From Promethearchaeota archaeon (GTDB taxonomy: Archaea > Asgardarchaeota > Lokiarchaeia > Sigyniarchaeales > SOKP01), in contig JAEOUA010000001.1 of the NCBI GenBank assembly GCA_016839555.1, positions 246,043 to 310,042 of the forward strand: a DNA stretch of 64,000 bases, in the 5' to 3' direction. The notes under the pieces are model-generated. The model searched no databases and was not told the DNA's origin. It saw nothing but the letters and a program-made list of their open reading frames with translations. Positions within the stretch are counted from its first letter, which is position 1. Every line of letters begins with the position of its first letter. The translations under genes were made by a program, and so were the position numbers. Of this stretch, positions 57,283 through 62,069 are shown piece by piece.

Positions 57283-57753
57283 TTATTTTTCATTAATCGG
57301 AAGCCAAGCTATTAAATCTAATCCCGCGGCTTGAAAAATTATCTCATCCCCTTTATTTATTTCAATACCTTGTCTTTCGAAATCGCTTTGTGTTATTAAA
57401 AAGATCATTCCATCATATTCAATAGCAAATTTCTCTTTCTTTAATTTAAAACCATTACATTGGTTCCACTTTTCAGGTATATTGTATTTTCCTAGATATT
57501 TTGCTTTTATAATTGGATTTTTTATATTTTCTTTATCATTATATTTATTTATCGAATTTATTTTATTCATATAAGAGATCCAAATCAAAAGATCAACTAT
57601 TTTTCCAATATAAGCTCTAAGATCAAAAGGTTTTTCATCCCTAATCCAAACCAATCTCTCATTTTCAAGTTTCGCTAAGATCGAAAAGCTAAAAATTTTA
57701 TCCTCATAGGGATCATAACCACTCCTTTCTATTTCTATAATTTTAACTTTCAT
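57283..57753 (-). CDS. Putative immunity protein, family I (C-terminal GD.I.F...LDL.AW)
   Basis: Paralogue of 58154 and 61635; its ATG overlaps the stop codon of the upstream orphan tip. Confidence 0.7.
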   Translation of the reverse strand: MKVKIIEIERSGYDPYEDKIFSFSILAKLENERLVWIRDEKPFDLRAYIGKIVDLLIWISYMNKINSINKYNDKENIKNPIIKAKYLGKYNIPEKWNQCNGFKLKKEKFAIEYDGMIFLITQSDFERQGIEINKGDEIIFQAAGLDLIAWLPINEK

Positions 57754-58157
57754 ACTTCTTTAATACCTAAATATCGAATTTTTTGGTATAAATTTTCAAT
57801 TTCATCAATAAAATATAGTCTTAATTCAATAATATTTCCTTTTTCATTAATTTTTATTCCTAAATATTCAATGGTATCTAAATGTTTAAATCTGTATACT
57901 TGAAATCCCAATTCATCATCTAGTACAAAGTAATTATCTTTAATAATCTTATATGCAAACTCAGCAACTTGATATGGCTTTTTTATATTCCATTTCTCAA
58001 AATCAATCTTATATTTTTGGAATGAATGAATGAATCCAAATCCCTTTTCTACTCCATATATTAATAAATATGGATTATTATACCCCTCTCTAGTAGTAAA
58101 GATGACTTCTCGATAGTCCTTGCAGCTTAAAAATTTGAATAAGAATAAATATTTTAT
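57750..58157 (-). pseudogene. Start-less orphan toxin tip (RNase-like class), 135 codons; not in the ORF track
   Basis: Manual translation ...EKGFGFIHSFQKYKIDFEKWNIKKPYQVAEFAYKIIKDNY...YLGIKINEKGNII...KEV*, homologous to the tips of 58602 and 60001. Confidence 0.75.
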
Positions 58158-58594
58158 TCAAGAGGACGCCAAGCAATTAAATCAAGTCGACCCTCAGAAA
58201 AGGTAATTATATCTCCATCATTTAAGTCTTTTGGCGTTTTCAAAAAATCTAATAATATGATCCCATTTACCGTTTGAACAGCAGGATAAGTTTTTGATAT
58301 TTGTCTTTTATCATAGTTCCACCAGCTCTCAGGAATTTGATAATTTTCTATAAACCTACCAGTAAAAATTGGTTTCGATCTGTCATGTCCTTTAGTAAAA
58401 TCAACCGAATTTATATTTATAGTACCAAGGGCGAGTATTAAGCAATCAATTATTGTATTAATTTTAATATTGGGATTGAAATGATCAAATAATTCTACTT
58501 CCATTCCATTATCTAATTGTGCTATAATTAAATAATCGCTTTTTTGATCCATATATACTGTACTAGGCCATAAATCTTTAATAAATGCTCTCAA
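58154..58594 (-). CDS. Putative immunity protein, family I
   Basis: Ends GDIITFSEGRLDLIAWRPLE; starts 8 bp after the toxin cassette stop. Confidence 0.7.
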   Translation of the reverse strand: MRAFIKDLWPSTVYMDQKSDYLIIAQLDNGMEVELFDHFNPNIKINTIIDCLILALGTININSVDFTKGHDRSKPIFTGRFIENYQIPESWWNYDKRQISKTYPAVQTVNGIILLDFLKTPKDLNDGDIITFSEGRLDLIAWRPLE

Positions 58595-58601
58595 TATTTG
58601 C

Positions 58602-59744: not shown

Positions 59745-60000
59745 TCACCAGCCGTCTGCAGCTATTAAGGTCGTGATTCCAGGCTTCGGCTCAATAGATA
59801 TTTGAGGAGAGATGATGCTCGCGAGTCTCTGGGATATTTCTAAGCTTAGCAAGGATTCGGAAAGCTCTTTTAAATATATCACGATAATAATTCTCTTCCC
59901 TAATATTTTCTATTCTCTAAACCTTTTTTATTCCATTTGCTAAGCGGAGCTCCTACTCAATTAGGAGCTTCCTTCGAATAAGAACAAATACGCCCTAAAG

Positions 60001-61623
60001 ATGGGAATTAAAAAAGGAAAAGCGACAATGGAGCGATCAATAATACTAAAGAAGAATATAATGGTAAATACACAGTTCGAGACCGATGAAAAAACCACTA
60101 AAGAAAAAATTAAGGATTTTATTAATAAAGATAAGATAAAGAATTTCTTGAAATATGCAATTCCAATAGGCACGGCAGCAACATTATCTGTAGTTCTTCC
60201 TTATGTGGGTGCACCCATGTTATTAGCTCAAGCGGTTAGTTTAGCTACTTCAACATTAGGTATAACCCTTATATATAAAAATGCCAAAATAGATTCTCGT
60301 AATAGTAAACATTTAACACTTTCGCAATATAAAAAAAATAATATTGATGAAATATCAAATTGCTATAAAGGAGATTATTTAAAATATATTAAAGAAGTTG
60401 ATTTGGCTTTTAGTACAATTAACATGAAATCAAAAGAATTGAGAAATTATCTCAAGAACCCTGATTTTTATGGAATAATCTATGAAATATATAATAGAAA
60501 AACAGGATTCATACACATTGAAAAAAGTAGGATCAAGGAATCCCCATCAGCTCATTTGACTCGATTAAAAAATGAAATTAGACAAAAAGAAAAAGAGGGA
60601 GTTAGATTAACACCTTTTGAAAGAGATTTCATAAATAATCCAGGAAATTATGAAATAAGACGTCTTCAATTATGTTTTAATAAAGAACAATATGAATATA
60701 ATGAAATATTTTGGAAATTAATTAACAATGCTAGATTGGGCGGAGTAGGTTATGACCTTGGAATAAATGGTTGGTATGACACCTCAATCTTGAATAGAGA
60801 ATATAATGGTGTCTCGGAAACGGATTTAACACTTGATATATTGAGCGGAATGAGTGAAAGAGCATTAAGAAGAAAATATGGCTCTGAAGACCTTACTGCA
60901 ATGTTAATGGAGTTTTATGACGTTGGAAACCTAGAAGAAGCTCAAAAATTGTTTATTCAACCTATTATAAAGAAATTAGTAGAACGATTTTATGGTATTC
61001 AAAAAGCTTTAGATGTTTTAAAGGAACATAATATTAATTTTGCTCCTAGTGAATTCTGGCTTAATGATTTTTGTAAGAAAATCTATGGTAAAACCTATAA
61101 TCAACTCTTAGATGAATTAAGTCCGATATATGAAAGATATATGGGTGATCAAAAGGGTAGATTAGTGGATCTAAAGATTTATTTAAGAGAAAAAGGAGTT
61201 GAGCTTTCTTGTGATGATAATGAAATCAAGGCTATCATTAAAGGACCTAAAATAGAGGGATGTGATTTATATTATATAACCCTAGGGCATCAGAATTATG
61301 AAAAAGGACAAGAGACTGATGGATTTGGAATTGAACATTGGGTTTATAAACATTTAACTATAAAACAATTTATAGGGGAAGGAATACAAAATCCAGAAGA
61401 ACTGGTTAATTTTGCATTGAAGACACTAGATAATAATTATAATTATAAATATAAAATTCGAGATAATGGTAGAATATCGATACTATATCTAGTAGAAAAT
61501 AATATAGGTAACCCTTACTTTATTAAATTTATTATTTCAGAAGATAGAGGATTAATTACCGCAATTCATATGACTTATAATGAAGGGAGAAATGAATATA
61601 ATAATCCCGAATTAATAACATGA
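60001..61623 (+). CDS. Toxin cassette: junction motif, hydrophobic segment, GIY-YIG-like domain, RNase-like tip
   Basis: VNTQFETDEKT; YGIIYEIYNRKTGFIHI...E.FW...GYD; tip DGFGIEHWVYKH...F...GI.NP...RGLITAIH. Confidence 0.68.
   Translation: MGIKKGKATMERSIILKKNIMVNTQFETDEKTTKEKIKDFINKDKIKNFLKYAIPIGTAATLSVVLPYVGAPMLLAQAVSLATSTLGITLIYKNAKIDSRNSKHLTLSQYKKNNIDEISNCYKGDYLKYIKEVDLAFSTINMKSKELRNYLKNPDFYGIIYEIYNRKTGFIHIEKSRIKESPSAHLTRLKNEIRQKEKEGVRLTPFERDFINNPGNYEIRRLQLCFNKEQYEYNEIFWKLINNARLGGVGYDLGINGWYDTSILNREYNGVSETDLTLDILSGMSERALRRKYGSEDLTAMLMEFYDVGNLEEAQKLFIQPIIKKLVERFYGIQKALDVLKEHNINFAPSEFWLNDFCKKIYGKTYNQLLDELSPIYERYMGDQKGRLVDLKIYLREKGVELSCDDNEIKAIIKGPKIEGCDLYYITLGHQNYEKGQETDGFGIEHWVYKHLTIKQFIGEGIQNPEELVNFALKTLDNNYNYKYKIRDNGRISILYLVENNIGNPYFIKFIISEDRGLITAIHMTYNEGRNEYNNPELIT
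60063..60098 (+). repeat. Junction repeat J4 (direct; 32/36 identical to J1)
   Basis: ggtaaatacacagttcgagaccgatgaaaaaaccac. Confidence 0.88.
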
Positions 61624-61634
61624 GGTAAACCTAA

Positions 61635-62069
61635 ATGAAACTAATACTTAAAAAGATTAAATATGTAGGAGATAAAAATGGAAAACTTCCTTATGAACAT
61701 GTCTATATTGGAGAATTTGAAACAGGAAAAAAAATTCAAATTGAAGATTACAGTTGCCAAATTTCAAAAGATTACATTAATAGAAAAATTGAGTGTTTAC
61801 TATATCCATATTTAGGTAAAAATCCTTATGAACGGGCTAAAAGTTATTATGAATATGAAATTAAAGGAGAGTTTTTAGGTGAATATTCTTTTTTTGAGGA
61901 TTGGAGTGAGAGCACCCGAGATTTAAATGATCTTCATGGTGTTAAAACTGAAGAAGGTGTTTTTTGTATAGATTCCAATTATATGAAAGATTTCTCCATC
62001 AAGAAAGGGGATTTGGTAATCTTTTTCACAGATCGTATTTCTCTTTTTGCTTGGCGGTTAATTGAATAA
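61635..62069 (+). CDS. Putative immunity protein, family I
   Basis: Ends KGDLVIFFTDRISLFAWRLIE; directly after the toxin tip, with a GAGG RBS. Confidence 0.7.
   Translation: MKLILKKIKYVGDKNGKLPYEHVYIGEFETGKKIQIEDYSCQISKDYINRKIECLLYPYLGKNPYERAKSYYEYEIKGEFLGEYSFFEDWSESTRDLNDLHGVKTEEGVFCIDSNYMKDFSIKKGDLVIFFTDRISLFAWRLIE

Follow-up and report, generated by a model that had tools for sequence, protein, structure and literature searches.

Three gene pairs lie side by side at 57283-62069 of the window, a 64-kb stretch of DNA (G+C about 30%) on contig 4 of the 3.7-Mb genome of a Promethearchaeota archaeon, and we think it likely that they are three spare polymorphic-toxin cassettes with their cognate immunity genes, belonging to an archaeal system. 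Each pair consists of an open frame whose C-terminal domain, here called the tip, falls by profile comparison into the toxin domain family of CdiA-CT BWH57 and the PBECR1-like domains, and of a small gene directly downstream whose product belongs to a protein family that we call family I. Judged from its genomic context, family I most likely encodes the antidote to the tip. The toxin family was already known and has a solved member; the partner family I and the Asgard setting are new here. All named relatives of the window's proteins were metagenome-assembled genome (MAG) proteins labelled 'Promethearchaeota' or 'Lokiarchaeota', which makes the host an Asgard archaeon of Loki type.

The first pair lies on the forward strand. 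The tip-1 cassette (60001..61623) is an open reading frame (ORF) of 540 amino acids (aa) with the tip domain at its C-terminus (about 61186-61620), and 11 nucleotides (nt) after its stop codon begins I1 (61635..62069, 144 aa), the candidate immunity gene for tip 1. The other two pairs lie on the reverse strand. The tip-2 cassette (58602..59744) is a 380-codon open frame, of which 281 aa follow the first ATG at 59447, and it too carries its tip domain at the C-terminus (about 58605-59000); after a gap of 7 nt comes the candidate immunity gene for tip 2, I2 (58154..58594), which encodes 146 aa from a TTG start. Tip 3 (57750..58157) is a 135-codon frame without a start codon and holds an N-terminally shortened tip. 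Its candidate immunity gene, I3 (57283..57753, 156 aa), has an ATG that overlaps the TGA of tip 3 as ATGA, a gap of -4 nt. All frames of the three pairs are open and without frameshift, and the whole genome contains three tips of this class and three family I genes, all of them in the window.

Since pairwise BLASTP comparisons between the window tips, which are 18-24% identical, were not significant (best E values 0.052 and 0.019), the homology of the tips rests on profiles. An external profile was built from 60 database representatives, with the window and locus rows excluded; some of these representatives were near-identical to tips of other Asgard genomes and none came from the window. Among 672 frames this profile found tip 2 with an E value of 5.8e-18, tip 3 with 1e-10 and tip 1 with 3.9e-9. 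A second profile, made from 12 further representatives and three named bacterial toxin ends, found the same tips at 7e-17, 8e-9 and 1.5e-7, respectively, and a profile seeded with the three window tips recovered ORFs upstream of family I genes elsewhere (E values 5e-19 to 3e-6). The nearest relatives of tip 2 were 36-38% identical to it. The three related tips described in a first-pass annotation of the window were thus recovered by independent profiles, and all of the motifs that it had quoted for them are present.

A profile of 17 Asgard tips had a single solved match in the PDB, 7m5f_C 'Toxin CdiA' (E value 8.8e-14, profile positions 4-113). The entry 7M5F (CASP14 H1065) shows the toxin domain at the C-terminus of the Serratia marcescens BWH57 CdiA protein, for which the text of its depositors' report describes a BECR (barnase/EndoU/colicin/RelE) RNase fold (PMC8616854). 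Both conserved tip histidines fall on residues of 7M5F, H47 and H52, that section 2.3 of that report lists together with E51 and R89 as candidate active-site residues. The tip family is large, with 1174 representatives at 50% identity for E values up to 1e-3 and 290 for E values up to 1e-10, and in 146 of the 150 representatives listed the domain ended no more than 25 residues from the C-terminus of the protein. The Pfam model PF18809 (PBECR1) was matched at E values up to 0.1 by 38 of 77 tip-family members, one of which exceeded the gathering score (27.7 versus 27.6 bits); for the 17 Asgard tips, among them the three of the window, the model was not listed even at E values up to 10. PBECR1 is the phage BECR-like nuclease 1, predicted to be a BECR RNase, and its signature is a histidine within the helix at the N-terminus together with a C-terminal threonine or serine, as set out in the portion of Iyer et al. 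2017 (PMC5512222) concerned with this domain.

Among bacteria, named relatives of the tips end proteins annotated as 'hemagglutinin repeat-containing' (CdiA-like) in Pantoea and Rhizobium and an ALF-repeat protein in Streptomyces, and the tip profile scored these named toxin ends at E values of 1e-36 to 1e-48. One of the 77 tip-family members also bears a Pretoxin-HINT domain. A search with the tip alignment aimed at longer proteins returned four proteins only and was uninformative on bacterial carriers, and a phage collection contained no match to a tip representative. Four proteins, P0021 (727 aa), P0023, P0056 and P0025, carried three to five tandem copies of the tip domain each, an arrangement reminiscent of the polyvalent proteins from which PBECR1 was originally reported. 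From these comparisons the tip would be a C-terminal toxin domain with a BECR fold, and its family is predicted to act as metal-independent RNases that use a histidine of the first helix and the C-terminal threonine or serine.

The products of the small genes are paralogs. I1 and I2 matched each other by BLASTP with an E value of 5e-8 (24% identity over 135 residues), and I2 and I3 with an E value of 1e-15 (31% identity over 139 residues). These values and the gaps of 11, 7 and -4 nt agree with what the annotation had said of the small proteins, namely that they are related, 144-156 aa long and directly downstream of the tips; the C-terminal motif that it had given for them is exact in I2 and I3, and I1 departs from it with V in place of I (GDLVIF). 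A profile of I1, I2 and I3 found 19 clusters in a collection of 5.8 billion proteins, and a 41-row family I alignment found 93. All named matches were hypothetical proteins of Promethearchaeota or Lokiarchaeota, none with a Pfam domain. Family I was matched in 37 of 400 genomes of the phylum. Within the taxonomic family of the window's own genome 33 of 134 genomes had a match, and outside it only three marginal matches were seen (E values 8e-4 to 9e-3). Beyond such marginal matches, then, family I was found only in one Loki-type Asgard family.

Profile searches of the PDB with family I gave no match (best E value 0.8), and when 41 family I members were scanned singly against Pfam, NCBIfam, PADLOC and PHROGs, no family there drew matches from more than two of them. 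Family I showed no recognised domain, no DNA-binding domain and no membrane segments. Its members come in a short form of about 145-155 aa and a long form of about 175-195 aa that carries an insert. The term 'beta-rich' fits the family because an alignment-averaged Chou-Fasman estimate gave about 37% strand and 8% helix, itself a crude figure from a method that mislabelled a known helix when the tips were used as a control. When family I was compared with an alignment of three bacterial partners of the same toxin domain, hhalign returned a probability of 0.09, and the family I profile scored the three partners below 0 bits. Family I is thus in no library searched and is, on these comparisons, unrelated to the bacterial partner family, which bears out the suggestion that it might be undescribed. 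Neither these tips nor family I were found described in the literature searched, whose coverage excluded Makarova et al. 2019 and its supplements.

In order to see which genes neighbor the tips elsewhere, we searched 400 Asgard genomes and found 34 tip matches in 23 of them, all in the same taxonomic family; three are those of the window. Of the 31 tips outside the window 29 could be assessed, the remaining two being one contig-edge case and one other. A family I gene followed 22 of the 29, a leucine-rich repeat (LRR) gene on the same strand followed four, and three had nothing downstream on the same strand. The 22 include two tips recognised by the larger profile only, one cut by a contig end and one that forms the N-terminal domain of a frame of 477 codons. 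In these neighbor counts, as in those below, related genomes should not be taken as independent. A single clade (Shimodaira-Hasegawa-like approximate likelihood ratio test support 98) unites the tips followed by LRR genes with an edge case and a fragment, and the LRR partners are 282-304 aa long (L059, L060, L050 and L067:2635-7393, in genomes G161, G181, G275 and G266).

The first-pass annotation had claimed that tip class and partner family co-vary strictly. In the window this holds, since family I follows all three tips of the present class and an LRR gene follows each of the two HHW tips, which are homologous to each other (E value 1e-28). Outside the window the rule is not strict, because LRR genes come after the tips of one clade with strong support; partner type tracks the tip clade, and family I is not the fixed partner of the whole class. 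In this Asgard family LRR genes therefore accompany HHW tips as well as a clade of BECR-type tips. Whether the LRR partners of that clade belong to the same family as the LRR proteins of the window was considered, but the two share only generic repeat similarity (30% identity) and we make no such claim. The bacterial partners of the toxin domain are different again: each named bacterial toxin end directly precedes an ORF of 98-119 aa with the signature of CdiI BWH57. Sequence comparison thus points to one toxin family with at least three unrelated partner families, CdiI-type, family I and LRR.

The tips and their family I neighbors have diverged together. Pairwise identities of tips and of family I proteins across 18 pairs were correlated (Mantel r 0.73, with none of 5000 permutations as high), and r was 0.39 when the comparison was restricted to pairs below 50% identity. 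The two partners also diverge at similar rates, tip identities of 79-80% corresponding to family I identities of 72-79%, and 50% to 50%. Arrays of the form tip-I-tip-I or tip-I-I recur in G161, G173 and G266, and the tip-bearing frames of relatives reach 12,291 and 9,240 codons. In G247 an identical 635-codon tip frame with its family I gene was found on two contigs, C10 and C26 (L043 and L058), through either duplication or assembly redundancy. We propose that the family I protein would be the cognate immunity protein, binding and blocking its own tip in the producing cell.

We also looked at the pairing from the side of family I, using 33 genes in 29 genomes at loci chosen by family I matches only. 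Directly upstream lay a tip in 16, another family I gene in two, as part of an array, and no tip in 14; one gene could not be assessed. This tabulation of upstream neighbors was one that the first-pass annotation had put forward, and although family I does not occur mostly without tips, the tip-less genes are a large minority. They are the first of several observations that weigh against the reading of family I and the tips as immunity and toxin genes. The solo copies that we examined sit among ordinary metabolic genes (for example beta-eliminating lyase, PUA protein, Ldh_2 and GH57), and two of the 14 (L013 and L028) follow a different C-terminal domain. The correlated divergence is itself ambiguous, since linkage alone would be expected to produce co-variation of adjoining genes. 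Family I members are acidic in 17 of 18 cases and the tips are not notably basic, with an isoelectric point above 7 in 6 of 18, so charge complementarity between the two is not evident. Furthermore, the window tips match no Pfam model on their own, RNase activity of the solved homolog CdiA-CT BWH57 is given in its depositors' text as a proposal and not as a result (PMC8616854), and a Pfam scan of the window's proteins identified no secretion signal or delivery machinery.

The tip-less genes deserve a closer description. Six of the 14 are one syntenic gene in one genus, located about 120 nt behind an ORF of 105 aa that is 95-99% conserved (L017, L019-L022 and L025); PUA-domain and beta-eliminating-lyase genes are among the neighbors of this locus, and a wider view found no tip within 7 kb (L063 and L064). 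One further tip-less gene follows an LRR gene. The domains upstream of family I in L013 (871-1380) and L028 (727-1236) are 34% identical to each other and end long ORFs; they had no Pfam match, and the idea that they are distant tips was rejected at an hhalign probability of 0.17. They may represent a further class of toxin that family I serves. Conserved chromosomal positions of solo copies among housekeeping genes, as behind the 105-aa ORF in six genomes of one genus, would also be expected if family I were an accessory factor (a chaperone, an activator or a co-delivered partner) or had a cellular function of its own, with tips recruited beside it, and its lack of resemblance to any known immunity family points the same way. 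We regard this alternative as improbable, however, because family I lies directly downstream of the toxin end with translational coupling, arrays of tips and family I genes recur, family I diverges as fast as the tips do, and bacteria and the LRR clade have unrelated partners in its place, which is what one would expect of immunity genes.

The remaining points against active toxin cassettes come from the residues of the window tips, which were compared with a 77-row alignment of the tip family. The first histidine, at the position of H47 in 7M5F, is found in 76 of the 77 members, including tips 1 and 3, and tip 2, which has a lysine there, is the sole member without it. The second histidine is found in 72 of 77 and is replaced by tyrosine in tip 3 and two relatives. 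At the C-terminal Thr/Ser position 54 of 77 members carry either residue (Thr in 43, Ser in 11), with Gly in 14 and Glu in three; tips 1 and 2 have the threonine and tip 3 has glutamate. Of the 77 members 63 have the proline of the TAxP ending, and all three window tips are without it. Tip 3 thus lacks the second histidine, the threonine and its N-terminal part, and it matches profile positions 40-147 only. Tip 1 alone of the three keeps both histidines and the C-terminal threonine, and since only tip 1 has this conserved set, the other two tips may be altered or no longer functional. The annotation had inferred that all three are BECR-like RNases. For the family this is supported by the BECR-fold member 7M5F and by the overlap with PBECR1, but in the window two of the three tips may not be active RNases because near-invariant motif residues are missing.

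These residues bear directly on the possibility that the cassettes are relics, that is, that two of the tips, 2 and 3, and perhaps tip 1 as well, have lost their activity as toxins and that family I has been kept as orphan immunity against the toxins of neighbors. Such an explanation shares the logic of toxin and immunity and denies only a current offensive role at this locus. It gains support from the lysine of tip 2 and from tip 3, which besides its second histidine and threonine is missing the first 38 or so profile positions, a start codon and a junction repeat, and also from the frequency of solo family I genes (14 of 33) and the 19 of 37 genomes with a family I match that have no tip match. 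Set against this are the open frames throughout, the retention of both histidines and the threonine by tip 1, and the recurrence of the tyrosine and glutamate of tip 3 in relatives on long intact frames (G153, G181 and G208). As they are common to such relatives, the substitutions in tip 3 may be a working variant. We consider it rather unlikely that the cassettes are relics; for tip 3 by itself, a shortened remnant that has retained its immunity gene is the form that our reading of spare toxin cassettes would give it.

That reading also draws on a repeat shared by the cassettes and a nearby large gene. A genome-wide search gave four significant copies of a junction repeat of 41-61 nt; every one of them lies in this island and is in frame. 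One copy (48386..48428, forward strand), the presumed acceptor site, lies inside the main ORF of 1112 aa (46231-49569). The others stand at the heads of cassettes: one at 54304-54344 begins an HHW cassette and is inverted with respect to the main ORF; one at 59536..59578 on the reverse strand begins the tip-2 cassette, is 43 nt long and 98% complementary to 48386-48428, and is likewise inverted; and one at 60057..60113 on the forward strand begins the tip-1 cassette in direct orientation, with 41 nt that are 88% identical to 48387-48427 (E value 6.3e-9 in the genome search). The same genome-wide junction search found no copy at tip 3. Because the junction is in frame in each copy, exchange at it would yield in-frame fusions, and recombination could swap the end of the 1112-aa main protein, by inversion for tip 2 and by deletion for tip 1. 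No Pfam domain was found in the main ORF, and the cassette bodies between junction and tip (58602-59744 and 60001-61185) had no Pfam match at E values up to 0.01; the idea that these bodies are signal-peptidase-like or GIY-YIG-like has no Pfam support.

Beyond the repeats and cassettes, a 134-nt inverted repeat (55881-56014 and 62401-62534, 81% complementary) brackets all three pairs of tip and family I gene, and an ORF of 224 aa without a Pfam match (56588-57262, reverse strand) lies directly downstream of I3 on the same strand. At 55012-55785, on the forward strand, a UPF0175-like ORF of 74 aa is followed by a PIN/DUF3368-like ORF of 180 aa, both below the Pfam cut-offs; by their sequences the two look like a VapBC-type pair inside the toxin island. 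The presence of such a UPF0175/PIN-type pair in the same island might suggest that the tips and family I genes are themselves intracellular toxin-antitoxin modules, serving addiction or abortive infection in the manner of RelE-like BECR toxins, and not exported weapons. We hold this to be very improbable. The tips are the C-termini of large proteins, as the frames of thousands of codons in relatives illustrate, the order is toxin and then partner, the partner has no DNA-binding domain, and start-less cassettes with a common junction fit polymorphic toxins; the stand-alone toxin and the upstream DNA-binding antitoxin that define type II (RelE-like) modules were not found. What was found is a variable C-terminal toxin domain on a large protein with a small partner gene directly downstream, and orphan cassettes that share a junction with the main gene, the 1112-aa ORF and the three cassette heads carrying it in common, which is the arrangement of polymorphic toxins in the sense of Zhang et al. 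2012.

Almost nothing is known experimentally of competition among Asgard archaea, and the locus offers compact, testable pairs of toxin and antidote, a single genome supplying three natural combinations, cognate as well as non-cognate. A structure of family I would probably add a new immunity fold, and the occurrence of at least three unrelated partner families for one toxin family bears on how immunity proteins get recruited. A pairing of LRR proteins with RNases would recall the eukaryotic ribonuclease inhibitor. It is tempting to speculate further that family I is an immunity family of new fold restricted to Loki-type Asgard archaea, that one BECR toxin has three unrelated antidotes and that solo family I copies are orphan immunity genes shielding cells from their neighbors. 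We put this combined proposal forward as a tentative one that may well not hold in all its parts; if true, it would provide direct evidence, from genomes, that contact-dependent warfare with RNases is going on among the closest archaeal relatives of eukaryotes.

The layout of the locus introduces no new principle, as it is that of bacterial polymorphic toxins and ordinary in kind. In Proteobacteria, orphan cdiA-CT/cdiI and rhs-CT/rhsI modules are toxin ends without a start codon that keep an intact immunity gene apiece; they are placed beside the main toxin gene or downstream of it and share short homology with it. The cassettes of the window resemble these modules in their start-less ends, their intact partner genes and their short homology to the main gene. 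They differ in their archaeal host, in their new immunity family and in their orientation, for of the three cassettes in the island that bear a junction two (HHW and tip 2) are inverted with respect to the main ORF; because of this inverted orientation, exchange would need inversion rather than simple replacement. With the CdiA-CT/CdiI system of BWH57 the tips share a homologous toxin domain, with both histidines in register, a C-terminal position on a large and here presumably exported protein and a small partner gene directly after it. The carrier here, in an Asgard archaeal host, is not a hemagglutinin-repeat protein, and most Asgard tips end in TAxP where the bacterial ones end in GANxR. 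The partners differ as well: CdiI is an alpha/beta protein of 98 residues, which the text of PMC8616854 presents as being without a close structural homolog, whereas family I proteins of 144-156 aa (175-195 aa in the long form) are unrelated to it. The histidine and C-terminal Thr/Ser pattern of PBECR1 is the one seen across the tips, with the departures noted for tips 2 and 3, and about half of the aligned family members match that model. Those passages of PMC5512222 that deal with PBECR1 place it in polyvalent proteins of phages and conjugative elements, without an immunity partner, whereas here it would be a swappable end with a partner gene. Finally, contact-dependent polymorphic toxins with downstream immunity genes have been predicted in general terms for archaea (Makarova et al. 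2019, mBio, through citations in PMC8416519 and PMC6393860), and the layout described here, a probable polymorphic-toxin locus with a candidate immunity gene downstream of each tip in an archaeon, is like the one that this prediction, in the form in which those two articles relay it, describes.

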